From Deltaproteobacteria bacterium (GTDB taxonomy: Bacteria; Myxococcota_A; Polyangia; JAAYKL01): DNA of 64,000 bases. Positions within the stretch are counted from its first letter, which is position 1. Every line of letters begins with the position of its first letter. The notes beneath the pieces were generated by a model. The model saw only the letters and a program-made list of their open reading frames with translations, had not been told where the DNA came from and made no database searches. Of the stretch, positions 9,039-45,820 are shown piece by piece. The position numbers were made by a program, and so were the translations under genes. The stretch is from NCBI GenBank assembly GCA_016936575.1, contig JAFGXQ010000045.1, positions 70,664 through 134,663 of the forward strand, given 5' to 3'.

Positions 9039-11987
9039 CTACTGCGAAATGCGTTCCATGGAGCCTACGGGGCCAAGTCCGTCGTTGCCGCCCACAATGT
9101 AGATATGCGAGTTCACGCGAACCGTTCCGTAATAGGATCGAGGAACCACAAAGCCGCCATTAGAGGACATGTAGTTGGTCAGAAATTCGGTACTCGCATC
9201 CGTAATCGGCTCTTCGGTCACGATCTCAAATCGTGTACTGAGAGAACCGAGGGGAGACGGTTCCATATCGACTCCGTCCCCATCAACGCCTTCCTGCTCT
9301 GAATCCACTCCTGGGAACGCGTACAAATACTGATCCACCACGACAGAGCCGCCGGCATAGGTAGTGCGACCATTCGACAAATCCGTATCCTGAACGGTCC
9401 ATTCCCCCAAAGCCGACATATTTACATCGAGAATCGCGGCTTCGATAGTCATCAACCCGCTATTGGGCGCAGGTGACGTGAATGATTCGTCTCCCGCCAC
9501 TGCGAATAGCAGTATCTGGGTGTCTGCCGCCGCCGGCAACGGATCGGGGTTCAGCGGACTGGTTCCCTGAGGCTGCGAAGACGATAGTCCCAAAAACGCC
9601 CGCGGCGTTTGCATTTCTTCAGTGATTGCAGTCGCGTCGCCGAGCGCGCCGTCCGCAAGAACCGAAATGAACTCCACACTGCCGAGATAGTTGTCTGTGC
9701 CGCCGTCTCCCCTCCCCCCTGCAATAATCATATAGCTGCCGGCGTCAGTGACCACAACGGTTCCCGCCGCGCCCTCTCGTGGGGTGGTCAGCGTTGCATC
9801 AAGTGTTTGCCAACGTGACAATGAACCAATTGGCAATGCAGCAACGCCATCGAGGGGAAAGCTCAGTTCATCAACTGCCAACGACCCATCGTCGGTCCAA
9901 CCGGTGTCGGCAACCCCCTCAGCGATCAGGAAGGTGTCTTCCGTCCCGACAATCGCTTCCGCTACCACATTGGTCCGATACACATTATACGTGGCTCCCG
10001 GCACCGGATCCCAAGTAAGCACCACGGTTCCCTGGGTTGCGTCAGTGGTCACCGACGTGCGATATCCAGCGATGGACTCCACTCCATTCACCACACTGGC
10101 GATACGGTACACCCAGATTCCGGCAGCCAGAGTGCCGCCATCAAAGACACTGGCGGAAACGAATCCGGGGGACGGAGCCGTTTCACCGGCATCCTGGTAG
10201 CAAATGAGATCGTCGGAGCCGCTCTCGACAGATGCAATCCAACGCGTGGTTCCCGGCCGCCCGTCTCCGGCGATAGAACGATATACATTGTAACTTGTCG
10301 CTTCCGGCAACCCGTCAAAACAAATTTCCACCGTTCCAGAGGTATTCAAAATCTGTACTTCATTGGAAGCCAACCCTTCTCCGAACGCACCAACGGCAGA
10401 AATCCTATAGTACCAGGTGCCATAAGGTAAATCTCCATCGCTTACCCGCGTCGGAGCAGAAACATCAACCATCGTATCGGATCCCAAAATCGTCGCTGTT
10501 TCAATGCTGTCCAATGCAACGTTATCGGCATCGAGGACGATGCTGGTATCCGTCGCGTTTCCCCCAAACGCATACAATCGATCTTTCAAACGCAGCAATA
10601 CGTGGCCGCTTCGAGGAGTATTCAATGCATTCTCCACTCGCGGTGTATCGGAATCCTGCCATTGCAGCAATGTTCGCCATTCCCCTACTTCGCCGTAAAT
10701 ATTCACCGCGGCGACTTCTGCGTTGCCAAGCACCTCATTGTCTGCATTGAGTCCACCGACAACATACATATGGGTACCGCTCCGCATGTCAAAACCGAAT
10801 GCGGTCCCGTGTCGCTCCCGTGCAGTCGCCAGCGTAGAATCCGGGGCATCGAAATTGCCTGTGAAATGACCGTCTGTGGGGCTCTTTGCTTCAAACGCAT
10901 AAAACGTATCGGATTGCCCATCGGGGTTCACCACTTTCACTGGATACAGCCCCAGCTCCACCGTGTCGGCGGGTATTGAAGTTACCAGCTCGGTGTCTGT
11001 GGCAGTGGTCACCTCCAGGGCGATTTCACCATCCGCGGTCAATAGAGAAACCGTCGCATCCACACTGAAGTACTGCCCCAATACCGTAAACGGTGTACAA
11101 TCTTCATTAAAAGGATGCTGCACAGGATCGATCGCTGAAATCTGGGGTGGAGATACATCCGTCACTTCAAATATGCCGGGTTCTTCGGTATCGGACACCA
11201 ACCATTGCCCGGCCAGCTCATCAGGATTACTTACCCACACATAATAAGCGCCGACCGAAATCTGCGCCGACTCGGATGGAATCGATGCAATGAGGGTGTT
11301 TTCATCGATGAAATTCACTTCAGACGCCAAATACGACACATCGGGGTTCTCCACACTGACCAACGTCACCCACGGGGTATTGACAAAATGTTCGCCGCTG
11401 ATCTGAATCGTTTTATCCGATAAGACATCATCATCCGTTGTGCCCACCCAGGCCAGTGCAGGCTCCACATTGGTTACTATCGGCGGCGGCAGTATTGAAA
11501 TGGAAAGCACCCCATCAAGCGTCGCAAAGGTACCGTCCGCCAACGTAACGGTCACATCATACAGTCCTTGAACTGCGGTCACTTCGGAACCGAAAAGTAC
11601 TGTTGCGGCTTCGCCCGTCTCTATCGATGCCGCACCCAGCGCCACAATCTGATCTCCGAGAGATATCGAAACGGTCATTCCCTCTTCAAATCCCGTACCC
11701 TGTATTGTTAACAACTGCTCCGTCCCCACGCTGATCGCACCCGGAAGAACACTGACCACCGTCAGTAACGCACTGGTATCGCCATTGATACTGTCTGAAT
11801 CCGTATCATCACTGCTATCGGTGCCTTCTGATTCCGTCGCCACTGAGGTGTCATTGATACTGGTATCGGGAGTGGTATCAGAACCGGTATCCCCATCATC
11901 TGATGATTTTTTATCATCTTCGGAGCATCCGAAAACCCACATCATCGAAACAATCAAGACCGCGATTTGTACACCTGATTTTATCAT
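9039..11987 (-). CDS. Large surface lipoprotein with IPT/TIG-like, Kelch-like and fibronectin-III-like beta domains
   Basis: ORF track 9039..12095. Preferred start is ATG at 11987 (MIKSGVQIAVLIVSMMWVFGCSEDD), which has a GGAGG spaced 8 nt upstream and a lipobox. Fn3-like GTVVLTWDPVPGATYNVYRT; Kelch-like GTHMYVVGGLNADNEVLGNAEVAAVNIYGEVGEWRTL; several Ig-like VTxV segments. Confidence 0.6.
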   Translation of the reverse strand: MIKSGVQIAVLIVSMMWVFGCSEDDKKSSDDGDTGSDTTPDTSINDTSVATESEGTDSSDDTDSDSINGDTSALLTVVSVLPGAISVGTEQLLTIQGTGFEEGMTVSISLGDQIVALGAASIETGEAATVLFGSEVTAVQGLYDVTVTLADGTFATLDGVLSISILPPPIVTNVEPALAWVGTTDDDVLSDKTIQISGEHFVNTPWVTLVSVENPDVSYLASEVNFIDENTLIASIPSESAQISVGAYYVWVSNPDELAGQWLVSDTEEPGIFEVTDVSPPQISAIDPVQHPFNEDCTPFTVLGQYFSVDATVSLLTADGEIALEVTTATDTELVTSIPADTVELGLYPVKVVNPDGQSDTFYAFEAKSPTDGHFTGNFDAPDSTLATARERHGTAFGFDMRSGTHMYVVGGLNADNEVLGNAEVAAVNIYGEVGEWRTLLQWQDSDTPRVENALNTPRSGHVLLRLKDRLYAFGGNATDTSIVLDADNVALDSIETATILGSDTMVDVSAPTRVSDGDLPYGTWYYRISAVGAFGEGLASNEVQILNTSGTVEICFDGLPEATSYNVYRSIAGDGRPGTTRWIASVESGSDDLICYQDAGETAPSPGFVSASVFDGGTLAAGIWVYRIASVVNGVESIAGYRTSVTTDATQGTVVLTWDPVPGATYNVYRTNVVAEAIVGTEDTFLIAEGVADTGWTDDGSLAVDELSFPLDGVAALPIGSLSRWQTLDATLTTPREGAAGTVVVTDAGSYMIIAGGRGDGGTDNYLGSVEFISVLADGALGDATAITEEMQTPRAFLGLSSSQPQGTSPLNPDPLPAAADTQILLFAVAGDESFTSPAPNSGLMTIEAAILDVNMSALGEWTVQDTDLSNGRTTYAGGSVVVDQYLYAFPGVDSEQEGVDGDGVDMEPSPLGSLSTRFEIVTEEPITDASTEFLTNYMSSNGGFVVPRSYYGTVRVNSHIYIVGGNDGLGPVGSMERISQ

Positions 11988-12174
11988 GAAAGTCACCTCC
12001 ATTGCATCTGTGCTGCACACTTGCAGCAACACCGTCAATACAGCCAGAACCGTGCCACTGACGCGGAGATGCGATATGCTCGATAGAATCATCATTTATT
12101 TTATTGAGACTGAATTTTTTCGACACAATTGTCGAGCCGCTCGATATTTTGGTCGAGCATCGGAATGATTGAAA

Positions 12175-14125: not shown

Positions 14126-15478
14126 ATGAACTTACGATTTTTTCTTTCAATACATTGGCTGGGAGTCCTTCTTGTTGTCTGCGGTTGTTCCTCCGACAAC
14201 AACACCGATGACACCGGAGACACCACGCCCGACACCGCCGACTCGGAAACCGAATCCGATACAGAGCGGAGTACTGAAACCGCAGAACCAACCAGCGATG
14301 ATTCCACCGACACCGACACAACAATCACCGAAATCACGGTCCGCCGTATTGCCGAAGAAAATGAAACCGAAGAGGACGTGACCGCAGACTCCATTGTATG
14401 GTTCGCGGTAATGGACAACGATGAAACCCGCGCGATTCCCTGGACCCCAGACAGCGAATTGGCAATGCGCGTGTCAGTCCAAGGTGACCGGTACGGCATA
14501 GCCTATCAATGCGCCAACAACGCAGGACTGACCGCAATATACACAACCGTTCAGGAACTCACCCAGATCGATATGATTTGTCCGGTTTCTCGTGCAATGG
14601 CGGGATGCGATGCAGATGTAGAAATCGTATGGGACGGATTTGAAGGGAATGGTGCGCTGATCACCACGTGGGGACACGAATACATTGAACACCCTGAGAC
14701 ATCGGGCTATCTGGCCCCCAACAGCGACCGAAGTGAATTCTTCGTAGCCGATACCCAGGACGGCATCCCTATGCATCTGTACTCCAGACCGAGCAATGAC
14801 TTCAGTTGCTCCGATACTGTTGTGATTGACCTTGCGGCAGATGCGAACCTGTACACATCGCACCCGCTCTCTTACGGCGCGCTTTCCCATAATACCGAAC
14901 TGATACCTGATGAAACCCGACATGTTTACTGCACTTCAACCATGCCGGACGGCGCCTACGCGTACACGTGCAAGGTTCCCTCAAACAGCACTCAGTTTTC
15001 GGCAGCATCAGGAGCTGCAATAAATCAAATTGCTATCAGCGGCTGGTGGGATGACGGACACCGACGCTCATATATACAATTGGAAAATCCTCCACCCGCT
15101 GCGGTGGAATTGTTCCTGCTGACCCCCATCGAATTTACAGAAATACAACACGCCGGCAGGACACCGAGTACAGGCATCATCATTTCACAGGACCCTTACG
15201 CACTCGCGTATATCTATACATTGAGATATGAAGACGATGCAGAAATTCACATCATCGCGACGCGAAGCTGGGTCGATGACCAACTGCCGCTTCTCACCCC
15301 CGACTTGACCGGAACATCCGTATCACTCTCAACACTGGGTCAGCTCGAAGCTTCGCAACTCGTCGCCACTTGGAGCAACCTGGGAACCATGCGTGCCATC
15401 AATAAAGTCGCGGGGCATTTCCCCACTGAAAGCAATGGGGAATCTGCAGCAGAAATCACGGCAATTGAGTTTTATTAA
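14126..15478 (+). CDS. Lipoprotein with acidic Thr/Asp/Glu-rich tether; unknown C-terminal domain
   Basis: Lipobox LLVVCGCSSD, then NNTDDTGDTTPDTADSETESDTERSTETAEPTSDDSTDTDTT, then a 350-aa domain with no recognisable motif. Confidence 0.55.
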   Translation: MNLRFFLSIHWLGVLLVVCGCSSDNNTDDTGDTTPDTADSETESDTERSTETAEPTSDDSTDTDTTITEITVRRIAEENETEEDVTADSIVWFAVMDNDETRAIPWTPDSELAMRVSVQGDRYGIAYQCANNAGLTAIYTTVQELTQIDMICPVSRAMAGCDADVEIVWDGFEGNGALITTWGHEYIEHPETSGYLAPNSDRSEFFVADTQDGIPMHLYSRPSNDFSCSDTVVIDLAADANLYTSHPLSYGALSHNTELIPDETRHVYCTSTMPDGAYAYTCKVPSNSTQFSAASGAAINQIAISGWWDDGHRRSYIQLENPPPAAVELFLLTPIEFTEIQHAGRTPSTGIIISQDPYALAYIYTLRYEDDAEIHIIATRSWVDDQLPLLTPDLTGTSVSLSTLGQLEASQLVATWSNLGTMRAINKVAGHFPTESNGESAAEITAIEFY

Positions 15479-15511: not shown

Positions 15512-16108
15512 CTATGACGGGTCTTTGCATTGTTCAAGAATGTCTGACTTCAAACCGGGGCAACAGGTATTCGGACCGAAGTAGGAACGCCAGATTAAAT
15601 CAGCGAAGCCTTTGCCCTTGGTGATTTGTCCCATTCGCGCGCCGTTCTGCTTCAGAAGTGTTCCCTGACCGGGAATGTAAATAATCTCCACATAACTGCC
15701 CTTATTTAAATCCTTGGTGAAATACGACAAGAATACGTTAATTTTTTTCTGCAGCTCAGTGGTGTCTTTACCCTGCGGTAAATTTTTCGTGAACGTGTCT
15801 TTCAAGTTGTCAATCAACCGCTTTTTGGGAATGGTTCGCTTCATTGACAGGATCAACGCCTTTACCTCTGACTTGTAGATCACCGACCGCATGCTGCACT
15901 CGCCGCTCTCAGAGTAGGCGCTGAGGCTGTAAATATCCACGAATAGAAATTCGCGGATCGCCGTACCCAGCAATTTGAGAGATTTTCCGGCGACGGCTTT
16001 ATTTTTCGATACTGCTCCCACCGCTGGAGACGGCGGAAACACAGTAACCATAACCAACACTGCCAGCGCGACAATGTACCCTTTTCTTGTGCACCATATT
16101 GCTTTCAT
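15512..16108 (-). CDS. Chalcone-isomerase-fold (CHI-like) secreted protein
   Basis: ORF track gives 15512..16132; start preferred at MKAIW. Signal peptide. LKLLGTAIREFLFVDIYSLSAY matches the CHI-fold core strand motif (L.L.G.G.R...V.Y...Y). C-terminal GFADLIWRSYFG. Confidence 0.45.
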   Translation of the reverse strand: MKAIWCTRKGYIVALAVLVMVTVFPPSPAVGAVSKNKAVAGKSLKLLGTAIREFLFVDIYSLSAYSESGECSMRSVIYKSEVKALILSMKRTIPKKRLIDNLKDTFTKNLPQGKDTTELQKKINVFLSYFTKDLNKGSYVEIIYIPGQGTLLKQNGARMGQITKGKGFADLIWRSYFGPNTCCPGLKSDILEQCKDPS

Positions 16109-16141
16109 GCGGGTTCCTTTATCGTTCAGCAAATCCGCGAC

Positions 16142-17308
16142 CTAATCTTCGCAGATTTTCAGTTGAGAAATAAACCACGGCGCGGGGATAGAACAGTCAC
16201 CGCACATCAATGCCACAATCCAAATCCCTTCGTCGGTAATACCGGTGAACGCGTTGCCGTTGTCATCTGTTAATTCAGAAAGGGTCGCATAGGTACCCGC
16301 ATCGATGGTTTTTCGCCAGATTTCATCTGCCATGTTTTCGAGATTCAGAAAATCGGATTCCAGTGCCGAAATCGTCGTATCGGTGTAGTGTGCAACCATA
16401 ATCCCGGCAATCATCGTGGGTGCGAACTCGCGCCCCATCGCGTTGTTCGTCATGCTGCCGGTCCAATCCAAATACACATCGGCGGTGCCGGGCGGCAAAA
16501 TAATCGGCTCCAGGGAACTGAGATCAGCTTCATAATCCAGTTGCACCGAATCATTGTGAATGGTTACCGTTGAATTGTTCGCATCTTCGCGCACATTGAA
16601 CAACGCGAGCATACGCGCATTTTGACCGAGAATGATGCCCGAAGAAAGCATCACCGAATACGAAAAATCTTCAGGTGGAACATTGACAGGATCCAGCAGA
16701 CTCAGCATGGAGGCTTCATCGAGCGCGGATCCCCCGGGAGAAACCAAATCCAGATAATTGAATGTCGTTGTGCTCTGTTCAGTAAAATACACAGCCGGCG
16801 GATTCGCCAAATCCTGCATTGTCCAATCATCACTATTCAACTTTTCAACCAACTCCTCTTCGTTTGCGGACCAAATGGTCACCAGTGCCATCTGTATATC
16901 GCCCTCGCCATCAAGCGGCTGCCCCAGCATGTCCTGAGTCAGATCATCCCATTGGAACGTAATATCGGTGGAGGGAGTTACCGACGTGGCTTCAATTGTC
17001 ATTTCATTGGTGAACGTGTAATTCTGTGCATCCACCAGTGCATACGACACCACGCCATCTGTGACAGGCACAACATCGCACGAAGGTGGCGGTTCGTCTG
17101 CGTCTGTATCGCTGTCGCTGTCACTGTCTCCGTCGCTATCGACATCCGAGTCGCTGTCAGTATCACCGTCACCATCGGTATCTGTATCGCTGTCACTGTC
17201 ACCATCTGTGCCGCTCTGCTCAGTGTCTGAATTACCGCCGCACGACAACATCGCACCAACGCAGAATATCAACACAAAAACAAACAACCATATTACTGTT
17301 TTCGACAT
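16142..17308 (-). CDS. Lipoprotein with a poly(D-S/T/G) tether and a ~300-aa globular domain of unknown function
   Basis: Lipobox AMLSCGG. Tether [41 protein letters not shown] encoded by a DNA repeat at 17092..17227. Confidence 0.55.
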   Translation of the reverse strand: MSKTVIWLFVFVLIFCVGAMLSCGGNSDTEQSGTDGDSDSDTDTDGDGDTDSDSDVDSDGDSDSDSDTDADEPPPSCDVVPVTDGVVSYALVDAQNYTFTNEMTIEATSVTPSTDITFQWDDLTQDMLGQPLDGEGDIQMALVTIWSANEEELVEKLNSDDWTMQDLANPPAVYFTEQSTTTFNYLDLVSPGGSALDEASMLSLLDPVNVPPEDFSYSVMLSSGIILGQNARMLALFNVREDANNSTVTIHNDSVQLDYEADLSSLEPIILPPGTADVYLDWTGSMTNNAMGREFAPTMIAGIMVAHYTDTTISALESDFLNLENMADEIWRKTIDAGTYATLSELTDDNGNAFTGITDEGIWIVALMCGDCSIPAPWFISQLKICED

Positions 17309-17347: not shown

Positions 17348-18766
17348 CTACTGCTCCAGATCCACTGGATGGCCATATAATGTAGGCCGCCAAACCACAT
17401 ATCCGAACGCGGCTTGGCCCAAATCAATTGAACGCACAAGCTGTTCGTCAGCAGCCACCTCGTGCATCAATGCTTTATTACTATACGAAACAAGTGTGTT
17501 GCCATTCGGCAAACGCTGCACATCCCCCAAGGTAGGCGTTCCGAGACCTTCCACACGATACCGCCATATCTCCCGCAACCCGCCGGTATCGCTTGAAAAC
17601 TCGTATTCCAGTGCCTCACTGGTCAGTGTCACATCTGAAAATGAACCACCATTATTGAAAATGAGAATACTGTTGTTGAGCAAATGGTGACCATGCTGAT
17701 ATTTCCACAACCCGTCATTCTGCGTCACCCACGCAACGTCTCCACTTTTATCGAATGCGACAATTTCGCCGTGCTCGTAGTCAGATACCGTAAATAACTG
17801 TTCGGCCATGGAGTAGCGTAACGCATTGCCGTGACACCCGGTTCCCCACGTATCGGCGGTATCGTATATCAAACCGATGTTGCCGTTGGTATCCAACGAC
17901 ATCACACGCGCGCAAACCGCTGAGTTTCCAAATCCGCCTTCCGGAGTGTATTCCAACCAGGCGAACGTGTTGTCATCTACAGGGGTCAAGTCATGCGCGG
18001 CACCCGTCAGCGACGTGAACTGTTTTACTTCCTGGCCATCCATTGACACCAGTTCCACAGCACCGGCGTTTCCCTGATTATTACTCGATACTACCGCCAT
18101 CCATTTGCCGTCGTAGCTCATTCGAGCCCTGGTGCTGTCGCTAAGCGCTGTTGCAGCGTACCACCAAACGATATCGCCGTCGTTGTCTATAATGAATGCC
18201 ATAGGGTTCTGCGAAAAAGAGGCCGCAGTATACGACGCCAAAACGAAAAATCCGGGGGCGACCGACGCTGATTGCGCTACAATGATATCGGCTCGCTGAA
18301 TCACGTTCGTTACCGGTTCAGTCGTGATCACCACATCATGACTGCGATACGTTGTTCCATCAATTACCGCATTCACGCGAACATGGTAGTCAGAAGACCC
18401 CTTCATACCCAGAAGCAATGTTCTGAAATATTCCGCGGTTAACTCCACTGGTGCGGTCATTCCATACTCGCTATCCAACCCGAAGTCGATGGTCGCCGCA
18501 TCGATTTCGTTATCAACATTCGTTGACCATTCCACAATGCCCACTGTTCCGATGGCGTCACTGAGGTTCACAGACACCTCAAACGTGATGTCTCTATCTC
18601 CCGCATCAGTATTGGCATCCGTATTGTCAACTTCAGTTCCGCGGTCGCTATCGTCGGAATCGTCCGAGCGCATACCATCGCCGGCAGCTCTTTCACTGGA
18701 GCAGCTCATCCAGAATACTGCTCCACAAAGTATCGCTAGAAATGTTATGGTTATAGACGCGCGCAT
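17348..18766 (-). CDS. Beta-propeller lipoprotein, arylsulfotransferase-like (tentative), with an N-terminal Ig-like beta-sandwich; paralog of 18788..20560
   Basis: Lipobox WMSCSS. Ig/Fn3-like [72 protein letters not shown]. Propeller blades end in His-rich QHGHHLLNNSILIFNNGG. About 60% identical by eye to the neighbouring gene. Confidence 0.45.
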   Translation of the reverse strand: MRASITITFLAILCGAVFWMSCSSERAAGDGMRSDDSDDSDRGTEVDNTDANTDAGDRDITFEVSVNLSDAIGTVGIVEWSTNVDNEIDAATIDFGLDSEYGMTAPVELTAEYFRTLLLGMKGSSDYHVRVNAVIDGTTYRSHDVVITTEPVTNVIQRADIIVAQSASVAPGFFVLASYTAASFSQNPMAFIIDNDGDIVWWYAATALSDSTRARMSYDGKWMAVVSSNNQGNAGAVELVSMDGQEVKQFTSLTGAAHDLTPVDDNTFAWLEYTPEGGFGNSAVCARVMSLDTNGNIGLIYDTADTWGTGCHGNALRYSMAEQLFTVSDYEHGEIVAFDKSGDVAWVTQNDGLWKYQHGHHLLNNSILIFNNGGSFSDVTLTSEALEYEFSSDTGGLREIWRYRVEGLGTPTLGDVQRLPNGNTLVSYSNKALMHEVAADEQLVRSIDLGQAAFGYVVWRPTLYGHPVDLEQ

Positions 18767-18787
18767 TTAAAATTCGTTTTGCCTCTA

Positions 18788-20560
18788 CTACATGATAACG
18801 TCAGTCGGAGGCCCGTACAGGGTTGGACGCCACACCACATACCCGAACGCGGTCTGCCCGAAGTTGTATTCCCGCACCATCGTTTGAGAGGAATCCACCT
18901 CATGAATAATGGCCTGGTTGCTATAGGCAACAATTGTGTTGTTATTCGGCAATCGCTGAATATCACCCAGGGTGGGAGTTCCCATATTCGGTACACTGTA
19001 ACTCCATACAAGGCTCATATTTCCTCCGCCACTCATGCTGAACTCCATGCCAACACTGGTCAGATTCACATCGGTAAAAGTACCGGCATTATTGAAGATC
19101 AATAGATTGCCGTTATTCAGCAGCTGGTGCCCGTGCTGCGGTCCCCATGAACCATCATTTTGCGTCAGCCACGAGACATTACCGTTTTTGTCAAATGCAA
19201 CAATCTGATGATGTTCATAGTCGGATACGGTAAATAACCCTTCCGCCTCTGAATACCGCAAGGAATTGCCGTGACAGTTGGCCCCCCAGGTATTTGCGGT
19301 GTCATAAATCAAACTGGTGTTGCCGTTTACATCCAGCGACATCACTCTTGCACATGCGGTCGACATAATGCCGCCGGTGCTTGGTACGTACTCCAGATAT
19401 GCAAAATTGTTGTCGTCAGTCACTGTCAAATCATGCGCGGCGCCTGTCAGAGAGGTAAACTGTTTTACCTCCAACCCGTCCATCGAAATCAGTTCCACCG
19501 ACCCTGCGGTTCCATTGTTGTTGCTCGAAACTACCGCCATCCATTTGCCATCGTAGCTCATACGCGCACGAGTGCTGTCTGCCAGTGATGTGGCGGTGTG
19601 CCACCATACAATGTCGCCGTCCGTATCGGCAATAAATGCCATCGGATTCTGCATCCATGAATTTGCCGAATATGATGCGAGGACCATGAATCCTTCACCG
19701 GGTGTGGTCCCGGCATGACTATCGGTAACCGTTGCGGCCTGTATGGCATTGGTCACCGGCCCGGTCGTGACGTTGTAATCTGGGCTGGTATATGTATTAC
19801 CGTCAATCTCAATTACCACGCGCAAATGGTAGGTGCGTGAGCCTTTCATTCCGAGAAGCAGGGTTCTGAAATCTTGTGCGTGCAAGTCTACCGGCGCTTC
19901 CATTCCGTATGCGGTATCCAGACCGAATTCGATATAGGCGCTGTCGATTTGGTCATCGACATTCGTCGACCATGTGACAATCCCAACGGTGCCGATGGCG
20001 CTGCTGGTAGATGGGTTCACCGTAAATGTAACATCCGTGTCGCTGTCACTGTCAGCATCACTGTCGCTATCTGTATCGCTGTCGCTGTCGGCATCACTGT
20101 CAGTATCACTGTCACTGTCGGTATCGCTGTCGCTGTCAGTATCGCTGTCGGTATCACTGTCACTGTCGGTATCGCTGTCACTATCACTATCGCTATCGGT
20201 ATCGCTGTCGCTGTCGCTATCAGTATCACTATCGCTATCGGTATCACTATCGCTATCGGTATCACTATCGCTATCGGTATCACTATCGCTATCGGTATCA
20301 CTATCGCTATCGCCATCGCTATCAGAATCTCCGTCGCTGTCGGCATCGCCATCGCCATCGCCGTCGGAGTCACTGTCGCTATCGCCGTCAGAGTCGCCAT
20401 CACCGTCAGAATCACTATCCCCATCCGAATCACCATCCGAATCACCATCCGAATCACCATCCACATATACCACGTTACCTTCATCTGTCGTACAGCCCGC
20501 CAGTTGGATTGCCGCCAGTACCGCGCTGAGCCAAAGCACAACGAAAATTGAATATTTCAT
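18788..20560 (-). CDS. Beta-propeller lipoprotein, arylsulfotransferase-like (tentative), carrying a ~150-aa poly(D-S/G/T) tether; paralog of 17348..18766
   Basis: Lipobox LAGCTT. 150 aa of [11 protein letters not shown]...TDSDSD, then [72 protein letters not shown], then a propeller with [19 protein letters not shown]. Confidence 0.45.
20005..20458 (-). repeat. Extended coding tandem repeat (6-nt and 18-nt periodicities: gtatcactatcgctatcg, gtcgctgtcact) encoding (D-S-D-x)n
   Basis: Near-perfect reiteration visible at 20220..20320 (atcggtatcactatcgct x5). It produces overlapping spurious ORFs in all six frames (19874..20551, 19974..20621, 20017..20541). Confidence 0.85.
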
Positions 20561-20653: not shown

Positions 20654-21484
20654 TCAGGGACGCTCCAGATATTCAGTTGTAAAATATAAATCTTTTGTAT
20701 TGGGTATATTTTCTATCTTTTCGATTTTAAAAATTGATTTTCTGCCGTTTTGTTTGTTCGTCATTTCCATATACTTTGATCGATATCTTTTTTTCAACTC
20801 GTCAAGGCATTCAATATTTTTGCTTTTCAGCTCTTTCAGCAGCTCCCCTTCCAAATCAAAATACAGCGCTTTTCGAATGGTATATTCTTCTTTCGCGATC
20901 CAGATTTTCTTTTTTGAATACCCTTCGTCCTCAGCAACGTCTTCATTTTTAGGTTTAACTTCAATCAGCCAACACGAAACACCATCCACCGCTTCTTCCT
21001 TCAGTGTTCTAAACGTGTAGTCTGTCAGCGTCGGTGTGTTCATATCGGCGTATGAAAACTCGCTTCCCATAAATGCCTTGGAACGTTCTGATGTGACAAT
21101 CCGCCGGGTTTTTCTGAGTGCAGGCAGATAAATCCACATATCATCCCCTTTATTTTCATAATCGAACGCAAGCACACCTGTTCCTTTGACGTCCGCCGGC
21201 GATAAGAACCGATATACCCGTTTTTCAGTCTTACCGTTGTCGAATAGTTTGGTAACCATCGCTATCTTGCGCTCTCGCTTTTCGCCTTTTCCGTTCTGAA
21301 TAATCAGCTTCATCACCGCCTCAGAACCATCCAGTTTGCGCGACAATGCAGCGTTTTCCATAATTTCTTTTGCCGTGAGCGTCGCCCCTGCATCTGCATT
21401 CATACCAGCGGAAATCACCAATCCAACAATAACCCCCAACACAAGCATGTTCGAAAACAAATATCGTCCTACTCTCATATCCAT
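20654..21484 (-). CDS. LolA-like outer-membrane lipoprotein-sorting/carrier protein (MMPL-associated family)
   Basis: 276 aa. Signal peptide, then an unclosed beta-barrel-type sequence (VLAFDYENKGDDMWIYLPALRKTRRI, SEFSYADM) typical of the LolA_like family encoded next to MMPL exporters. Basic K/E-rich C-terminus. Confidence 0.55.
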   Translation of the reverse strand: MDMRVGRYLFSNMLVLGVIVGLVISAGMNADAGATLTAKEIMENAALSRKLDGSEAVMKLIIQNGKGEKRERKIAMVTKLFDNGKTEKRVYRFLSPADVKGTGVLAFDYENKGDDMWIYLPALRKTRRIVTSERSKAFMGSEFSYADMNTPTLTDYTFRTLKEEAVDGVSCWLIEVKPKNEDVAEDEGYSKKKIWIAKEEYTIRKALYFDLEGELLKELKSKNIECLDELKKRYRSKYMEMTNKQNGRKSIFKIEKIENIPNTKDLYFTTEYLERP

Positions 21485-21519: not shown

Positions 21520-23841
21520 CTACGCCGCGCCGGGTAATTCCTCGGTCGAATTTCCACTCTCTGTAGGCTCCAGAAATTTTGGTTTAAATACAATCACCAC
21601 TGCCGGCAGCACCACCAGCGCACCGATAAGACACGAGACAATAGAAACCACCACCAGTAACCCGAAAAACTGTACAGGAAAAAACTGCGACAGAAGCAAC
21701 ACCACAAACCCAACCACCACCGAAAAACCATTGAACAGGATTCCCCGTCCCGCCGAACGCAATGTTATTTTCACCGCATCCATCGGTTCCGCCAGCCTGC
21801 GTTCCTCGCGATAACGCCACAGAAAATGAATGGTGTAATCAATGCCAACACCAATCATAATCGATGAAAGCATCGCGGTAATCAAATTCAATTCAATGCC
21901 CCAATACCCCATCAACCCGAACAATATTGAAACAGCAATTCCCAAAGGAATCATCGAAATCAGCCCCGCAACAACCGATCGCATTACAGCGCCTACCAAC
22001 ACACCACACAGGAGAATAGACAAAAACAAACTCAACAACTGCCCCCGTACGATGTAATCCACCATGTTGGTAATCACATCCAATAAACCGCCCACAATCG
22101 TGAACGGTGCCTGAGGATGGGCATCAATGTACGCCTGTGTGTAATGGACCACATCGGTTGCCGCCCGGGTTCCACTGTCTCGTACCTGCGCAAGGATTTG
22201 CGCATTGCGATAATTGAAGTCTACGAGTTTATTGAAATCCTCAATATCGCCGCTAAGCGAGTACAGCAGAAAGTACTGCGCAATCAAATCTCGTTTGTCC
22301 GGAACTTTATCCGCAGATGCGGCGTTGTCGTTCATTACTCTGTTCATTCCGCGCACCATTGCGGCGATTGATGATGTGGTACCCACCAGTGGATGCTTTT
22401 TCAGATGCCTTTCCAGTTTATCGATTTCCTTCATCACCGCAGGGTCTTTGATGTCGCCCTTGGCAACGATCGACACATTCGCCCACCCTCCGAAATGTTC
22501 ATTCAACATATGGGTGGCGCGCCAAACCGGATCGTTTTTTTTGTAAAAACTCATCGGATTGCTGTCTACAACAATAAATGCCGCACCTGTTGCAAATGCC
22601 ACGAGCAGAACCCCGCTGATGATTAAAATTCCTCTGGATTTTTTTGACGCGACATCCCCTATGAAATTCAACAAGCGACTCATCAATGTCGCCACATCCT
22701 GAATCTTTTTTTCTTTTTTCTTCTTCGATTTCGATTTCGGCAATACTGCCAATACCGCGGGAATAAACACCAAGCTGCCCACCATTGCAAAGGCAACACC
22801 GGCAGCAGCCAGAATTCCCAGCTGCTCTGCCGGAATGATGATATGCGAGAGCAGACAAAGAAGCCCCACCATCGTGGTGATTCCGCTTGCCAGAATGGGT
22901 TGATTTAAATGCTGAACAGTCGCATGGGCAAGCTGCTTCGAATCGAGTTCCTTGTTTTCAGCACGTTCTTCCTGATATCTCGCCATAATGTGAATTCCGT
23001 AATCATTTGCCACAGCAAGAAGGATTACGGGAAGCAACACGGTGACAGTATGAATTTTCCATCCGAGGAACGCGAGCAGACCAAGCGCAAACACGATTGC
23101 CATCACTGTCATAATAAACGGCATCAACACGCCGCGTGCTTCCCGGAAACATAACAGCAAGAAAATAAACATCAGCACCAAACCGACCGGAAGAAAACGA
23201 GACATGTCCTTTCGAATATCTTTCGAAAGCTTCACGCGGGTAACCGGCATCCCACCAATTAACGCATCTCCGGGCCCTTTCGTCTGTTTAATCAGTTGCT
23301 CCAGCTGACCAACCACTTTTTCATCTGAAGCGTCCGTCGCCAGAAAACCGATAAGCACCGTGTGTTTGAAATCCTTCGATACGATGTTCCCGTACACCAA
23401 CTCATTTTCTTTTAAATCATGACGTAGCGTTTCCTTCTGCTTCTCGCTTTTCGGTATACGGCGAATCGCCTGTTCCACCACCAGCTCTCCGCATTCGGCA
23501 CTGATATGTTTGGCGGTGAAAAGAGTGATTACCCGATCGAACTCTTTGATATGTTCAAACTTTTTCGACATTTCCTTCAACCGGTGAATCACGTCGATAT
23601 CGAGAATATCATCGGCAGAAAGCACAATCATGATCATATCGGTTCCACCGAACAGCTTTTCAATTTGGGTCAGATTTTTTCGAGTGGGCAAATCCACAGG
23701 CAGTTGATTCTTCATCTCCGTATCCAACTCAATGTGCCGAAGTTGAAAAGCAGCGGCAACCGTAACTGCAACAAAAATAACGATAATCGGCCAGGGGTGT
23801 GAGGTGACAAAATTTGCAAAACTGTTCTTCCGCTGTTTCAT
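21520..23841 (-). CDS. MMPL/RND-superfamily lipid exporter (HpnN/MmpL-like, 12 TM with two periplasmic loops)
   Basis: 773 aa. The N-terminal TM segment is followed by a periplasmic domain, a six-TM block (LMFIFLLLCF...GLLAFLGWKIHTVTVLLPVILLAVANDYGIHI), and then a second periplasmic domain and a second TM block (GIAVSILFGLMGYWGIELNLITAMLSSIMIGVGIDYTIHFLWRYREE). This is the classic duplicated RND/MMPL topology. Confidence 0.8.
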   Translation of the reverse strand: MKQRKNSFANFVTSHPWPIIVIFVAVTVAAAFQLRHIELDTEMKNQLPVDLPTRKNLTQIEKLFGGTDMIMIVLSADDILDIDVIHRLKEMSKKFEHIKEFDRVITLFTAKHISAECGELVVEQAIRRIPKSEKQKETLRHDLKENELVYGNIVSKDFKHTVLIGFLATDASDEKVVGQLEQLIKQTKGPGDALIGGMPVTRVKLSKDIRKDMSRFLPVGLVLMFIFLLLCFREARGVLMPFIMTVMAIVFALGLLAFLGWKIHTVTVLLPVILLAVANDYGIHIMARYQEERAENKELDSKQLAHATVQHLNQPILASGITTMVGLLCLLSHIIIPAEQLGILAAAGVAFAMVGSLVFIPAVLAVLPKSKSKKKKEKKIQDVATLMSRLLNFIGDVASKKSRGILIISGVLLVAFATGAAFIVVDSNPMSFYKKNDPVWRATHMLNEHFGGWANVSIVAKGDIKDPAVMKEIDKLERHLKKHPLVGTTSSIAAMVRGMNRVMNDNAASADKVPDKRDLIAQYFLLYSLSGDIEDFNKLVDFNYRNAQILAQVRDSGTRAATDVVHYTQAYIDAHPQAPFTIVGGLLDVITNMVDYIVRGQLLSLFLSILLCGVLVGAVMRSVVAGLISMIPLGIAVSILFGLMGYWGIELNLITAMLSSIMIGVGIDYTIHFLWRYREERRLAEPMDAVKITLRSAGRGILFNGFSVVVGFVVLLLSQFFPVQFFGLLVVVSIVSCLIGALVVLPAVVIVFKPKFLEPTESGNSTEELPGAA

Positions 23842-23854: not shown

Positions 23855-25402
23855 CTAGAACGATAATTTCATTTCCGCGTATCCGGCGCTCTGCAACTGA
23901 TCGATCATTCCGAACAATGTATCATCAGGCCCCATGTACAATTCCGCACCTACGCTGACCGTCATATCGTCGACCAACTTGTACGCAATTTTCGGGTACA
24001 CCAACCACTCTCCGGTTGAAAAGTTCGCCATACCGAACGCCACGAGAGAAAGTGTGTCGTGCAGCGTTGTCCAGGTGATACGCAACGACGCACCGTGCTG
24101 AATCTTTTCTGTATGGCCGTGAATCAGCTGATTTTTTACCGCCAATTCCCGGTACGCCATATAACTTCGCGTTTCCTCCGGAATGAATCCATAATTCTGA
24201 ATCACGGTATCCAGATGATCCAGGTCCAAATCCATGGCCAGAGAATTGATAAATTCCTCAATGGTGCTGTCACCGTCCGGTACGGTTTCCCAATCAAGTA
24301 CATATCGCCCGATATATTGACCGATAAGCAACACATTACCGATTTCCTTGTCCGCTCCAAGTACATAGTACACATCAGGCTTCGGAACATGAATACGCTG
24401 GTCACGAATGCTCGGTTTCTCGGTGGGGTACCGAAACGCAGCCTCTCCTCGCAGTCCGAATAGAGAAGCAATCGTGGTAGAAAAATCGGCCCCCACCACG
24501 TGATGTTTGTATGCACGACGCGAAACCGTCACCGATGCCGGAACGTCTGTAAGCTGGTACGACTCGAGCGACAGACCCGGCGTTAAAGAAAAGCCGTACA
24601 AATACGAAAGCGACATCTCGAACGATGAGAAAATCAGATGCGTCTTTCCGGCAATCAATCCGTTCAACACATCAAAGTCAGGATACACCGGGTCGCTAAA
24701 AACAATAGCATCTGACAACGCCACTTTCGGCATTACCGACGGAACATATATGGGCATCCACACGACTTCCAAGCGCAATGGGTTCAAGTTCAACCGCGCA
24801 CGCAATCCGATGTTGGCCAAACGCCGGTCGTCTTCTTCAGGCGAGCGAACCCGAATATCGACAGGTGTGATACTATTTGTTGGATTGATGCCATCGGCGC
24901 GTCCCCAAACAACAATCTGTTGACCCAGCCTCAGTTCCAAGCGACTGAGGTATAGATTGACATACGCTTCACGAAGCATAATTGATGTGTCAAACTCGCC
25001 TATCGACTCTCCTCCGCCCGATCGTTCTGTAGGTTGTCCCAGATATGTTTCATCATTCAAGTACCCTCCTTTCAATCGAAGCTCGGCGAAACCGTCCGTC
25101 ATCCGTTCTTTCACCGCCCGTAACTTCAACGCCAGTTCCCCATACCCTGTTTTCAGCTCAGCCCTGGGCTGTCGCGGCATTTTTCCGACAAACACGTCGC
25201 CGCGGATGTAGCCGTTCAAATCGAATGTCAAAGGATTCTGTACGACCGTTTCGGTTGATTCCCCATTGGAATCCACAGGCGATGCAGGGGCGGTATCTGT
25301 TTCATTCCCCGAAACCGCGTCGTCGAACAATCCGGCCGAAGCGATACCGGGTATGTGCGCAAGAATAAGAAATCCAATCAGTGCCTTAATACCATGTTTC
25401 AT
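23855..25402 (-). CDS. Secreted outer-membrane beta-barrel protein (possibly DUF1302-like, a family often co-encoded with LolA-like/MMPL genes)
   Basis: Signal peptide MKHGIKALIGFLILAHIPGIASA. Alternating hydrophobic beta-strand pattern; the C-terminus ends in an aromatic (..EMKLSF). It sits 13 bp upstream of the MMPL gene. Confidence 0.45.
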   Translation of the reverse strand: MKHGIKALIGFLILAHIPGIASAGLFDDAVSGNETDTAPASPVDSNGESTETVVQNPLTFDLNGYIRGDVFVGKMPRQPRAELKTGYGELALKLRAVKERMTDGFAELRLKGGYLNDETYLGQPTERSGGGESIGEFDTSIMLREAYVNLYLSRLELRLGQQIVVWGRADGINPTNSITPVDIRVRSPEEDDRRLANIGLRARLNLNPLRLEVVWMPIYVPSVMPKVALSDAIVFSDPVYPDFDVLNGLIAGKTHLIFSSFEMSLSYLYGFSLTPGLSLESYQLTDVPASVTVSRRAYKHHVVGADFSTTIASLFGLRGEAAFRYPTEKPSIRDQRIHVPKPDVYYVLGADKEIGNVLLIGQYIGRYVLDWETVPDGDSTIEEFINSLAMDLDLDHLDTVIQNYGFIPEETRSYMAYRELAVKNQLIHGHTEKIQHGASLRITWTTLHDTLSLVAFGMANFSTGEWLVYPKIAYKLVDDMTVSVGAELYMGPDDTLFGMIDQLQSAGYAEMKLSF

Positions 25403-26922: not shown

Positions 26923-27918
26923 CTATACCCCTGTACAATCCGCTGACATGGTGTTTCTGAACAACGAAGTAACATCTTCAGCTTCAAAGAAAGCCGATAG
27001 TCGATAACCGATTCGCCCATCCGCTGTCACACAGCTGGGTACGATTTCAGCTGCATCCATAATTCCGCGAAAGGTCGCCCAGTTTCCATTTTGCCCACAG
27101 GCGCTGGCGCAATAGCCCGAAATCGCTTCCACTGAAAACGATTCAAACGGATCTTCCGGCGGTGTCGGAAAACCGGTTTCCGGTAAAGCGCCGTCTTTAC
27201 TGCACAATCCGGCCTTGATACACATACAAATTTGATTGACCGACTCCTGCGGCAGGCACCCTTCAAGATGCCCCGACGAAATCTGACTACAGTTTTCATT
27301 AAAACCGAACGTAACATGCAGATCATGAATCGGCGTGCTGTTCGCGGGAGACAACAACGGCGCACACATCAGAGGATCAGTCTGCGGCCCCAAATGAAAA
27401 TATAACGTCTGTGCCTCGGTGTTTCTGAATCTGCACTGATAACCGTTTGACGGAATGACATCAACGCCGATATTCAACGATTCATCCATAAAACAATACG
27501 ACTCAATCGTCGAAAAATCATCGTTTGAATATCCGGTAGAAGGCGTGCGCCAGGCCGGGCCCACACTCAATTGCAGCCTGGAGAAGGCCGCGAGTTCGTC
27601 GTCATCGGCTTCTGCAATGTCAACCACGAACAGCACATTCAGCAGGTAATTCGAAATCTCGTATTCCCACATGCTGTCGAGTGTCACGTTCAGCCTGGCC
27701 GGTTGGTCAACGGTTAAACGGGTAAATCGATAGGCCCGGCCTGTCACGTCCTCGGGCGTGCAGTTGCACTGAGTATTCTCCCCTGTCGCATCGCCTTGGA
27801 TAAAGACATCCGGAGCCGGCGGCTCAATAATGTCCACACAAGCAACAACGGTCATCATCGCAACGGCCAATGTAGTTGTCAGCCTATACGCCTGCGACGT
27901 TCTCACCGCTCTCTTCAT
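26923..27918 (-). CDS. Cysteine-containing secreted lipoprotein of unknown function
   Basis: Start preferred at MKRAVRT. Signal peptide with VVACVD lipobox-like site, about 20 Cys, no recognisable domain. Confidence 0.4.
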   Translation of the reverse strand: MKRAVRTSQAYRLTTTLAVAMMTVVACVDIIEPPAPDVFIQGDATGENTQCNCTPEDVTGRAYRFTRLTVDQPARLNVTLDSMWEYEISNYLLNVLFVVDIAEADDDELAAFSRLQLSVGPAWRTPSTGYSNDDFSTIESYCFMDESLNIGVDVIPSNGYQCRFRNTEAQTLYFHLGPQTDPLMCAPLLSPANSTPIHDLHVTFGFNENCSQISSGHLEGCLPQESVNQICMCIKAGLCSKDGALPETGFPTPPEDPFESFSVEAISGYCASACGQNGNWATFRGIMDAAEIVPSCVTADGRIGYRLSAFFEAEDVTSLFRNTMSADCTGV

Positions 27919-27955
27919 GTGAAATACATGCTTACAGATTCGCACAAGGGTCATC

Positions 27956-28756
27956 CTATTCTGCGCACTCCGCACTTGCTGCTACGACTTCTGTCAACTG
28001 AAGACCTGAAACGACCTGACCAGTTACATTACTTGCGGTAAGATGCATGCAGAACAACTCGCCGTCATGTTCGCATTCTTCACATGCAAATCCCATCGTC
28101 GGCGCAGTGTTGCAAATCTTTTCAGGCGTGGGGTCTGTAAACATGATTGTAAACAGTTCGTAAATATCTCTGAAATCAACTGTGGCTTTGAGGGTACCAT
28201 CGATAAATGCATCTCCTCCGTTCACCAGAGACCCTGAAATACTCAAATCATGAATGGTTGCTACTTCGAAGGCACCATTTCCTTCAATAACGGTTTCCAG
28301 ATTTGTCGGACCAATCAGAAAATCGGGATTGTCCGCAATCGTGCCGCTGCACGAGGCCGTGGCACTACACATATCCTGCACACCGTCATTCATCGTTCCC
28401 ATCGAAGTCGTCAGCGCGGATTGAGCGATTTCTACAACGGTAAAGGCAAATATCGGAACATATCCGCCCAACTCCGCCCCCACACCGGACGGTGTCCAGT
28501 TTGCAGCCGGAATTTCATCCAGGGCATAGGTATTCGCCAAAATAACACTAACGTCTTCCAGGGGCGTTGCATCTAAAGTTTCGCTGGGGGTATCTGATTC
28601 CGAATCCACATCGGTTCCGCTGTCAGATGCAGTGTCACTATCGTTCGTGTCGATATTATCAGAATCATCGGCCTCATCCCCGGTTTTGTCGCCACAACTC
28701 AGCAGTAGCAGACAAAACAACCCTACCAATCCGGACAATTTCAATTGCGTTTCCAT
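27956..28756 (-). CDS. Lipoprotein with acidic D/S/T tether; unknown globular domain
   Basis: Lipobox LLLSCGD. Tether KTGDEADDSDNIDTNDSDTASDSGTDVDSESDTPSETLD. Confidence 0.5.
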   Translation of the reverse strand: METQLKLSGLVGLFCLLLLSCGDKTGDEADDSDNIDTNDSDTASDSGTDVDSESDTPSETLDATPLEDVSVILANTYALDEIPAANWTPSGVGAELGGYVPIFAFTVVEIAQSALTTSMGTMNDGVQDMCSATASCSGTIADNPDFLIGPTNLETVIEGNGAFEVATIHDLSISGSLVNGGDAFIDGTLKATVDFRDIYELFTIMFTDPTPEKICNTAPTMGFACEECEHDGELFCMHLTASNVTGQVVSGLQLTEVVAASAECAE

Positions 28757-28789: not shown

Positions 28790-29812
28790 CTATACCCAGA
28801 TGCCTGCCACTGTGGCCATTGTGAACCCCGACGCGGCACTTCCCAGCATGAGTTTTTCATCCTTTTGCGGTTCTCTTTGAGAAAGCAGATAATCAAACAC
28901 CACACCAATCGTGGCGCTGGCGTTATTTCCGTACAAGTGATGCGTGTATACTCCCCTATCCAATTCTGCACCGATTTTCGACAGAACCTTCCGCGTCATG
29001 AATTCGCTGGGTTGATGAAATAAGTAATGCGCAACCTCGTTGGGATCCCATCCCAATTTCTTCAACACCTCCATCAGACGAGGTGCAATATACTTATGAA
29101 GTTTCATCAGTTCCGTCGATGATGAACTGAATGTGCCGTGAATCGGCACCTGGCAGAGAGACCAGTGGTTAGGCAGAGAATGCGTGTCGGTACTGACAAC
29201 CCGAACACATCCGTTTGACCAGGGATTTTTGCTCACCAGAAAACAAGCTGCTGCGTTTCCGATGGTCAAACCGGCGGCTTTGTACTGCAAATCGGTAAGT
29301 GTTTGAATATCGAACGACAAAAACTCCCGCGAGAGTTCAGCTGTACAAACCAACGCAGTCTCGTAGTCATCGTGCATATTCAGGTACGCACAGGCGACCT
29401 GCACAGCTTCCAAATGTCCCACGCACGCACTGGTTACGTCAAAAGCATGCGTCTGTGTGATGCCAAGATTCGCACACACTTCCATTGCCGTAGCAGGCTC
29501 AAAGTACTCTCTTGCCACCCCACCGAAAATCACCAAATCCACATCGTCCAAAGCAGTGCTGTTTCTCTCGAGGCAGTTAGCAGCTGCCTTTGCCGCATAC
29601 GCCGCGACCCTTGACTCAGGATTGAAATCCAGGTAGCGCACCTGAGTATTACATTTGCTCAAAATCTTTTTGGTTGCCGCTTCAATGGCTGTCCACGCAA
29701 GCTTATTTCCCTTGTAGTTTTGTTTGACCAAATCGATAATCGCAGCATTGTCATATCGTGTATCAGGTACATGAATTCCCGGCTTAGATAAATATAGTTC
29801 TGGCATCGTCAT
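28790..29812 (-). CDS. FabH-like beta-ketoacyl-ACP synthase III / condensing enzyme (KAS III family, DarB/OleA-type candidate)
   Basis: Start preferred at ATGACGATG (MTMPELYL), with AGGAAC 6 nt upstream. Catalytic triad context: Cys in DVTSACVGHLEAV, His in YLFHQPSEFMTRKVL, Asn in LYGNNASATIGVV. The C-terminus is GSAASGFTMATVAGIWV. Confidence 0.75.
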   Translation of the reverse strand: MTMPELYLSKPGIHVPDTRYDNAAIIDLVKQNYKGNKLAWTAIEAATKKILSKCNTQVRYLDFNPESRVAAYAAKAAANCLERNSTALDDVDLVIFGGVAREYFEPATAMEVCANLGITQTHAFDVTSACVGHLEAVQVACAYLNMHDDYETALVCTAELSREFLSFDIQTLTDLQYKAAGLTIGNAAACFLVSKNPWSNGCVRVVSTDTHSLPNHWSLCQVPIHGTFSSSSTELMKLHKYIAPRLMEVLKKLGWDPNEVAHYLFHQPSEFMTRKVLSKIGAELDRGVYTHHLYGNNASATIGVVFDYLLSQREPQKDEKLMLGSAASGFTMATVAGIWV

Positions 29813-30023
29813 TGAATTGTTCCTGTATGTGTTTCCAGAAATCGTCCATGCAAGACAGCTCAGCATGTAAAGCCGTCTTAATCGAAGATTTAAACAATGG
29901 TGCGAACGAAGCGAGGAAAGGGGTTGATATAAATGAACCTTTTTTACTTATTCTTTTTACAGAGGAAAATGATTGCAGCTTATTTGAAAAATTTCGTTCA
30001 TCTCAAATCATTTCAACATTCTG

Positions 30024-41369: not shown

Positions 41370-41373
41370 CGGC

Positions 41374-45646: not shown

Positions 45647-45820
45647 CGTTCTTTCTTCTATCGAAAAACAGAAAAATTGGAACTCACATAACACCTATTC
45701 CGCGCTGTGTTGTCAATTCTACAATGATGTGCTATTCGAGTTTTTATGAAGTTTTTTAATTTGACTGCACATAAAAAACGCCTACGTTAATGGGTAAATG
45801 ACTTTCAATGGAGCGAGAAT

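Follow-up and report, generated by a model that had tools for sequence, protein, structure and literature searches.

What is the function of two adjacent genes for tethered beta-propeller lipoproteins in a bacterium assigned to the Deltaproteobacteria, and is their tentative assignment as arylsulfate sulfotransferases (ASST) correct? We addressed this question in a 64,000-nt window of assembly GCA_016936575.1 (contig JAFGXQ010000045.1, positions 70,664-134,663 of the forward strand), to which all coordinates given without a locus number refer; loci fetched from other genomes bear L numbers. Both open reading frames (ORFs) were found on the minus strand exactly where the initial annotation had placed them, with an intergenic gap of 21 bp:

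17348..18766, minus strand: copy A, ASST-like lipoprotein of 472 aa, with Cys22, a 37-aa acidic linker, a fibronectin type III (FN3)-like domain at about 60-150 and a propeller at about 160-472; predicted catalytic His358, with H258, H312 and N314
18788..20560, minus strand: copy B, ASST-like lipoprotein of 590 aa, with Cys23 in the motif LAGC, an (Asp-X)x72 tether, an FN3-like domain and an ASST domain of the six-bladed-propeller type

On the evidence of sequence comparison and structural modelling, the two proteins are true members of the ASST superfamily, if divergent ones, with about 12% identity to the E. coli enzyme. This superfamily transfers sulfuryl groups without 3′-phosphoadenosine 5′-phosphosulfate (PAPS). 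That the adjacent genes are duplicates is confirmed by 66% identity over 413 aa (BLASTP of copy A against copy B, E = 0), and the common motifs quoted earlier, including QHGH(H/Q)LLNN, are found in both. Copy B is transcribed first, followed by copy A; the long-repeat and short-tether copies are thus as originally described, except that the long-tether copy lies upstream, and not downstream, in the direction of transcription.

Family membership and fold

The ASST-like assignment, initially a guess, holds at the level of family and fold, as judged by Pfam, profile, structural and residue comparisons. Both proteins exceed the gathering cut-offs of both ASST families in Pfam, scoring 47.8 bits (copy A) and 37.6 bits (copy B) with PF05935 Arylsulfotrans (cut-off 24.2), and 30.5 and 29.3 bits, respectively, with PF14269 Arylsulfotran_2 (cut-off 27). 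A family profile was built from 56 homologs, and all conservation counts given below are over these 56 members. When compared with the PDB, this profile matched Cpz4 from the caprazamycin pathway (9kf4/9kf6) with an E-value of 6e-11 and E. coli ASST (3elq) with 2e-7, and its N-terminal domain matched tenascin FN3 domains with 7e-4. The AlphaFold2 (AF2) model computed on the family alignment (pLDDT 88.9, pTM 0.85) has its beta-sandwich at residues 62-148 and an all-beta propeller after it, so that the proposed N-terminal beta-sandwich is now supported both by the modelled strands and by the FN3 profile match.

A Foldseek search of the PDB, the structural comparison that the initial annotation had recommended, returned E. 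coli ASST chains as its nine best matches (E-values from 1e-15 to 3e-14, TM 0.60-0.62), and these extended over the full length, including the N-terminal domain. They were followed by Cpz4 (3e-11), while unrelated propellers (NHL, lactonases, TolB) started only at 8e-9. A propeller of the PQQ-dehydrogenase or YVTN type, considered as another candidate, was rejected, as none ranked near ASST or Cpz4 in the fold search. ASST is therefore the top match, and its histidines have aligned counterparts, leaving neither part of the opposite scenario, in which unrelated propellers score better and the ASST histidines find no partner. Indeed, the ASST/AssT of E. coli CFT073 (3ELQ, 3ETS, 3ETT, 4P04-07; PF05935), the best full-length structural match of the window protein model, displays the same arrangement of an N-terminal beta-sandwich followed by a six-bladed propeller, and both are extracytoplasmic. 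Cpz4 (9KF4/9KF6; PF14269) ranks first in the PDB by sequence profile and second by structure.

Active-site residues

The active site of ASST comprises His436, which is transiently sulfurylated, His252, His356, Asn358, Arg374 and Thr501 (PMC13426309). The assT gene of CFT073 (L001:28857-30653, beside dsbL and dsbI) was aligned with the family profile by hhalign (probability 95.9%, 229 columns), and the E. coli residues correspond to the following positions in the window family:

His436: H358, in 56 of 56 members, within the QHGH motif in both copies
His252: H258, in 54 of 56 members
His356: H312, in 54 of 56 members
Asn358: N314, in 56 of 56 members
Arg374: Tyr330 in both copies, in a variable column (V18, L15, R11, Y4, H3)
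Thr501: Leu413 according to hhalign, in a loop of uncertain alignment; a Ser/Thr column (S37, T17) is found three residues earlier, at 410

The check for catalytic histidines thus had a positive outcome, with four ASST residues aligned with near-invariant ones that are present in both copies. In this alignment the predicted nucleophile is preserved along with three of the five residues that assist it. N372 and E387, which vary little or not at all among the 56 members, are identical in ASST as well. The family also has invariant residues of its own, namely D259, D415, Q417, R418 and the C285/C311 pair.

Lipoprotein anchor and Asp-X tethers

Both proteins are predicted lipoproteins, each having a hydrophobic signal segment that ends in a lipobox cysteine. 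In copy B it ends in the canonical LAGC (Cys23), and in copy A in WMSC (Cys22), where positions -3 and -2 depart from the canonical motif; the lipobox Cys column is kept in 53 of the 56 aligned family members. The NCBI protein set contains a protein from a metagenome-assembled genome (MAG) that is 100% identical to copy A and is named aryl-sulfate sulfotransferase, with a length of 453 aa and a start 19 codons later, resulting in loss of the signal peptide. The disagreement maps to 18701..18766 on the minus strand, and conservation of Cys22 in the family supports the longer start over the shorter NCBI model.

The tether of copy B has the following extent:

20033..20461, minus strand: tether of copy B, residues 34-176 (143 aa), strict alternation of D with S, T, G or A, identified by composition count and DNA repeat

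It had been described as about 150 residues of pure (D-S/G/T). The alternation with Asp is indeed perfect, over 143 residues, although three alanines are present as well (72 D, 43 S, 13 T, 12 G and 3 A). The underlying DNA is an imperfect tandem repeat with a period of 6/18/36/48 and 74-86% matches. The 472-aa copy, which lies at the lower coordinates, has the short acidic tether ascribed to it, in the form of the 37-residue linker. Low-complexity linkers of 11-165 residues follow the lipobox throughout the ASST-like family, being G/S/T/A-rich in most Polyangiaceae and of the Asp-X type in the lineage of the window.

The idea that the DS tether is specific to ASST-like enzymes was rejected, as a profile that included it retrieved dozens of unrelated lipoprotein families through the tether alone, among them glycosidases, DUF1566 proteins and deacetylases. 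Within the window, an Asp-X-type tether is found on at least six lipoproteins, which include the 388-aa protein encoded next to copy A (hereafter the partner), unk266 (27956..28756, minus strand), a 450-aa protein (14126..15478, plus strand) and a polysaccharide-deacetylase-domain lipoprotein with an SD repeat of about 120 residues (31516..33183, minus strand). From these sequences, the Asp-X tether placed directly after the lipobox is a lineage-wide feature of lipoproteins. No NCBIfam model matched the ASST-like body of either copy, the only matches being to the SD-repeat parts of models for staphylococcal Sdr/Clf MSCRAMM proteins. In those proteins an (Asp-Ser) dipeptide repeat likewise keeps the functional domain at a distance from the anchor; however, the likeness is compositional only (about 100 bits against cut-offs of 999-2500), and their anchor is a C-terminal sortase anchor, as opposed to an N-terminal lipid in a Gram-negative-type envelope.

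Distribution and paralogs

The ASST-like family yielded at least 1363 matches at E<=1e-3 among the candidates scored. A scan of species-representative genomes provided 80 loci, nearly all of them from MAGs of Polyangia, Polyangiaceae or “Deltaproteobacteria”. Several paralogs often occur in one genome, with at least seven loci coming from a single Polyangia MAG, and the sequences collected represent a large, multi-copy lipoprotein family of the Polyangia. In tblastn comparisons with 87 fetched loci, 12 were found to contain two or more ASST-like genes. Three such genes stand in a row on a 6-kb contig (L088:1563-5736).

In a rough neighbour-joining tree, members associated with the gene module described below are found in several deep clades, and there is a large clade of stand-alone paralogs. 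Members of tandem pairs, such as copies A and B of the window and the pairs in L017, L038, L067 and L088, are usually each other's closest relatives, which indicates recurrent local duplication or gene conversion of ASST-like genes. A different arrangement is seen in L056, L074 and L077, each of which harbors two separate ASST-like/partner pairs belonging to different clades in one module locus.

Gene cluster and its conservation in relatives

Synteny was assessed with the window proteins as tblastn queries against the 87 loci, considering neighbours within 10 kb. At least two of the KAS III-, FadL-, DUF1302-, MMPL- and LolA-like genes lie within this distance of an ASST-like gene in 13 loci from different MAGs (L004, L008, L017, L038, L049, L055, L056, L058, L074, L077, L078 and L083 are examples), which we call module loci. 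In the window, the ASST-like pair belongs to a series of twelve consecutive minus-strand genes running from 31103 to 15512, with gaps of 1-157 bp or small overlaps. The other genes, in the order of transcription, are:

30024..31103, minus strand: membrane-anchored PAPS-type sulfotransferase (Sulfotransfer_3, 53.2 bits; Sulfotransfer_1, 32.1 bits)
28790..29866, minus strand: cytoplasmic KAS III-like condensing enzyme (Pfam ACP_syn_III_C/ACP_syn_III)
27956..28756, minus strand: unk266, Cys-rich lipoprotein with acidic tether; homologs in 10 loci
26923..27975, minus strand: unk350, Cys-rich lipoprotein, true start probably internal (sequence inspection); homologs in L004 and L008
25404..27020, minus strand: FadL/TodX-type outer-membrane channel for hydrophobic compounds (Pfam Toluene_X, 63.8 bits); 12 loci
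23855..25402, minus strand: DUF1302-like outer-membrane protein (Pfam); recurs in 11 loci
21520..23841, minus strand: HAE3-family transporter of the resistance-nodulation-division (RND)/MMPL type (Pfam MMPL, 155.7 bits; TIGR00921 HAE3, 319 bits)
20654..21484, minus strand: LolA-like periplasmic carrier, PF17131 (Pfam, 185.6 bits); recurs in module loci
16142..17308, minus strand: conserved partner, Cys-containing all-beta lipoprotein of 388 aa with a D-S/G/T tether; homologs in 18 loci
15512..16132, minus strand: exported chalcone-isomerase-like protein, PF16036 Chalcone_3 (Pfam, 77.7 bits); also in module loci L008 and L017/L089

Two classes of sulfotransferase are therefore combined in one locus, as had been pointed out, with the PAPS-type gene on the same strand as the ASST-like pair. 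Its product has the PAPS-binding motifs PRSGTT and RDP..S and an N-terminal hydrophobic segment, and its best PDB match is 2z6v (E-value 2e-6), which is mycobacterial Stf9; homologs 56% identical to it are present in L049 and L083. The KAS III-like enzyme has Cys148, His284 and Asn314 in FabH-like motifs; it does not reach the cut-off of any NCBIfam model. Among solved structures it is closest to the FabH-like 3row/4kti group (3.5e-15), which is Xanthomonas OleA, and homologs 53-65% identical to it adjoin ASST-like genes in 12 loci. A metagenome scan for the frequency of ASST-like neighbours among KAS III-like genes gave a single locus, of 1.9 kb. The HAE3/MMPL homologs in module loci are 56-76% identical to that of the window. 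An HAE3 RND transporter, a DUF1302 protein and a LolA-superfamily protein make up the hydrophobic efflux system AmeABCD (PMC6394551), and the transporter part of the window cluster has the same composition; this likeness applies to the neighbours and not to the ASST-like pair, and no ASST-like component has been described for Ame systems. A scan for promoters and terminators found sites no more frequent than in shuffled sequences, and unk350 and unk266 had no match in Pfam, NCBIfam or the PDB.

Gene order is shuffled between the module-bearing genomes. The gene most tightly linked to ASST-like genes is that of the partner, which in the 18 loci nearly always directly adjoins an ASST-like gene (e.g. 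L008:11517-12470 and L090:11716-12858). The partner had no match in Pfam or NCBIfam, and although its AF2 model is confident (pLDDT 91) and all-beta, the best PDB match of this model in Foldseek had a TM of <=0.28. Its family comprises at least 502 representative clusters at E<=1e-30; weak TEAD-like matches were not significant and were not used. A minimal core, consisting of KAS III-like, ASST-like and partner genes, is found in L090. Precomputed Pfam annotation agrees with the maps of L004, L089 and L090.

Genes that use or make PAPS are present in five of about 14 module loci (the window, L049, L083, L004 and L055), and none were found in about 70 other ASST-like loci. They code for a sulfotransferase in the window, L049 and L083 and for adenosine 5′-phosphosulfate (APS) kinase in L004, and in L055 a CysD-like gene and a CysN/CysC fusion directly follow the KAS III-like gene. 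This stretch of L055 (L055:16077-19795) continues, after the CysD-like and CysN/CysC (GTPase plus APS kinase) genes, with a LigB-family extradiol dioxygenase, and the assT-dsbL-dsbI cluster of CFT073 also borders a LigB-family gene, ygiD (L001:32071-32859). These LigB-family neighbours may be a coincidence or a hint of catechol-type substrates.

Other genes of the window

A 531-aa lipoprotein with GILT and DsbA-like thioredoxin domains is encoded in the window 17 kb away from the pair (37441..39036, plus strand), and a homolog 47% identical to it directly adjoins an ASST-like gene in L004 (L004:11634-13235). Since C285 and C311 are invariant in the ASST-like family, this protein could serve the family as a disulfide oxidase of its own, much as DsbL/DsbI serve E. 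coli ASST. Disulfide dependence is likely to be a common property of the window family and E. coli ASST; there is no dsbL/dsbI pair beside the window genes. An assimilatory sulfur cluster at 58196..63251 (minus strand) encodes a PAPS-reductase-domain protein, an Fe-S flavoprotein, a sulfite/nitrite reductase and a cysteine-synthase-like enzyme dependent on pyridoxal phosphate. At 52395..54135 (minus strand) the gene for a steroid 5-alpha-reductase-like membrane protein (Steroid_dh) overlaps that of a protein of the 3-beta-hydroxysteroid dehydrogenase/epimerase family, and the two may modify sterols or polyprenols. The large and small subunits of methylmalonyl-CoA mutase are encoded together with a MeaB GTPase at 40365..45694 (minus strand). 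The twelve-gene cluster itself is flanked by genes for a 1018-aa TIG/Kelch-repeat protein (9039..12095, minus strand), for which no homologs were found in the related loci, and an RCC1-repeat protein (33449..34414, plus strand).

Proposed function

Taking together what the fold, the family, the conserved residues, the architecture of a lipoprotein and the recurring gene neighbourhood show, and reasoning by analogy with E. coli ASST, we consider it fairly probable that the two proteins, anchored to lipid and extended by their tethers, transfer sulfuryl groups by way of His358 and independently of PAPS. The N-terminal cysteine would anchor each protein to lipid, with the disordered low-complexity tether of 37 or 143 residues holding the body off the membrane. 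The mechanism would be of the ping-pong type: His358 would take up a sulfuryl group from a donor with a good leaving group, such as a phenol or enol sulfate, and hand it on to the hydroxyl of an acceptor, with H258, H312 and N314 holding the group. The enzymes may act jointly with the lipoprotein encoded directly downstream. In the operon-like cluster, the KAS III-like enzyme would make a lipid-like compound that the PAPS-dependent sulfotransferase can sulfate in the cytoplasm, and the HAE3 RND, LolA-like, DUF1302 and FadL-like proteins would move this compound across the envelope. The conserved neighbourhood suggests that substrates of the ASST-like enzymes are connected with such a KAS III-made compound that leaves through the RND module. 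From the features described above we infer that the enzymes transfer sulfuryl groups, that His358 is catalytic and that they are linked to the exported compound.

Several observations weigh against a sulfuryl-transferase role. Identity to E. coli ASST is low, and a phmmer search of PDB sequences with the single 472-aa sequence gave no match at E<=1; of the sequence searches of the PDB, only that with the 56-member profile reached ASST and Cpz4. Arg374, which is said to coordinate the sulfuryl group in ASST (PMC13426309), belongs to an S-x-R motif that is unmatched in both copies, unlike in Cpz4, which keeps an Arg at this position; Thr501 has no clear match in the window proteins either. Most module loci have no sulfotransferase within 10 kb, and about 70 of 84 loci are stand-alone (e.g. 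L002 and L006). Finally, alkyl sulfates were reported to be inactive as ASST donors (PMC13426309).

The substitutions in the active site raise the question of whether the ASST fold serves some other chemistry here, such as hydrolysis (sulfatase, esterase or lactonase) or transfer of another group on an exported lipid. The Arg374 equivalent is lost not only in both copies but in 45 of the 56 members, and with Thr501 unmatched and the invariant D415, Q417, R418 and H360 lacking identical counterparts in ASST, the family could have acquired a different reaction; lactonase-type propellers are among the weaker structural matches (E-values of about 1e-8 to 1e-7), and the minimal core of L090 contains no sulfate gene. 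We nevertheless regard other chemistry as unlikely, given that the position of the sulfurylated histidine and the three helpers closest to it show little or no variation, that ASST and Cpz4 surpass all other propellers by about seven orders of magnitude, and that it is in the module loci, specifically, that genes for sulfate activation and sulfotransferases are enriched.

Alternatively, the proteins could be ordinary ASST-type enzymes acting on environmental aryl sulfates or phenols in detoxification or sulfate scavenging, and their lipid-gene neighbourhood would then be coincidental. This would be in line with the stand-alone position of most paralogs in unrelated contexts, with the multiple copies per genome, as expected of broad-specificity exo-enzymes, and with the promiscuity of characterised arylsulfate sulfotransferases, the physiological substrates of which have not been identified (PMC13426309). 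It is rendered quite improbable by the occurrence of the same gene set with ASST-like genes in 13 different MAGs in spite of the shuffled order, by the very tight spacing of the window genes, and by the minimal operon of L090, whose succession of KAS III-like, ASST-like and partner genes speaks for a direct connection. A non-catalytic role, in which the propeller lipoprotein would provide binding or a scaffold for the lipid-export machinery, although compatible with the position of the ASST-like genes between the LolA-like carrier and other module lipoproteins and with the accessory periplasmic AmeC, of no established role, in AmeABCD-type HAE3 systems (PMC6394551), is very improbable, since four ASST active-site residues would hardly stay nearly invariant among proteins of only 35-60% identity if these were not catalytic.

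Sulfuryl transfer is the function that we favor. In caprazamycin biosynthesis, sulfation by Cpz6, Cpz8 and Cpz4 proceeds in two steps: a PAPS-dependent enzyme sulfates a small carrier, which then becomes the donor for the ASST-type enzyme (PMC4257720). In the window, similarly, genes for a condensing enzyme and a PAPS-dependent sulfotransferase lie together with those for ASST-type enzymes. By analogy, a trans-envelope sulfate relay can be envisaged, in which the KAS III-like enzyme would make a lipidic phenol or enol carrier, the membrane-anchored PAPS-dependent sulfotransferase would charge it in the cytoplasm, the HAE3-RND/LolA-like/DUF1302/FadL machinery would export the charged carrier, and the tethered ASST-like lipoproteins, together with the beta-sandwich partner, would use it as a donor to sulfate periplasmic or cell-surface targets. 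The scheme is attractive because the window has all three functional classes of the Cpz system plus an exporter, with the ASST-type enzymes located outside the cytoplasm, where PAPS is absent. The gene data fit such a two-step relay to the cell envelope without proving it, and we consider it doubtful, because no PAPS gene lies within 10 kb in most module loci, the carrier chemistry is not established, and alkyl sulfates are reportedly poor ASST donors.

The systems also differ in several respects. The carrier of the Cpz system, a pyrone or phenol, is made by a type III polyketide synthase, as opposed to a KAS III-like enzyme; the ASST-like enzymes of the window are exported lipoproteins, and the cluster adds an envelope-spanning export module; PAPS-related genes occur in only a minority of module loci; and there is no antibiotic pathway near the window genes. 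E. coli ASST, in turn, is a soluble periplasmic dimer, in contrast to the lipoproteins with disordered tethers described here, and the window family has a partner lipoprotein, a neighbourhood of lipid synthesis and export genes, and multiple copies per genome.

Implications for ASST-type enzymes

The ASST assignment is already contained in the automatic annotation at NCBI, and the core of the finding is therefore known. What goes beyond it is the lipoprotein-with-tether architecture, the change at the position of the active-site Arg, the conserved partner family without a Pfam model, and the repeated occurrence beside genes for a condensing enzyme, for a lipid exporter and for the use or synthesis of PAPS; a literature search found no paper on the ASST-like lipoprotein subfamily or on its gene combination. 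ASST-type enzymes find wide use in biocatalysis. A review of 2026 states that 40 years have brought no natural ASST donor to light, except in the case of Cpz4 (PMC13426309). With the subfamily, the search for natural substrates of these enzymes gains a defined genetic setting. Should the relay be wrong, divergent ASST homologs without Arg374 would still serve to test which residues are truly essential. If it is true, the relay would give extracytoplasmic ASSTs their first physiological donor system and would be a general solution to sulfation outside the cytoplasm, explaining how bacteria achieve it.

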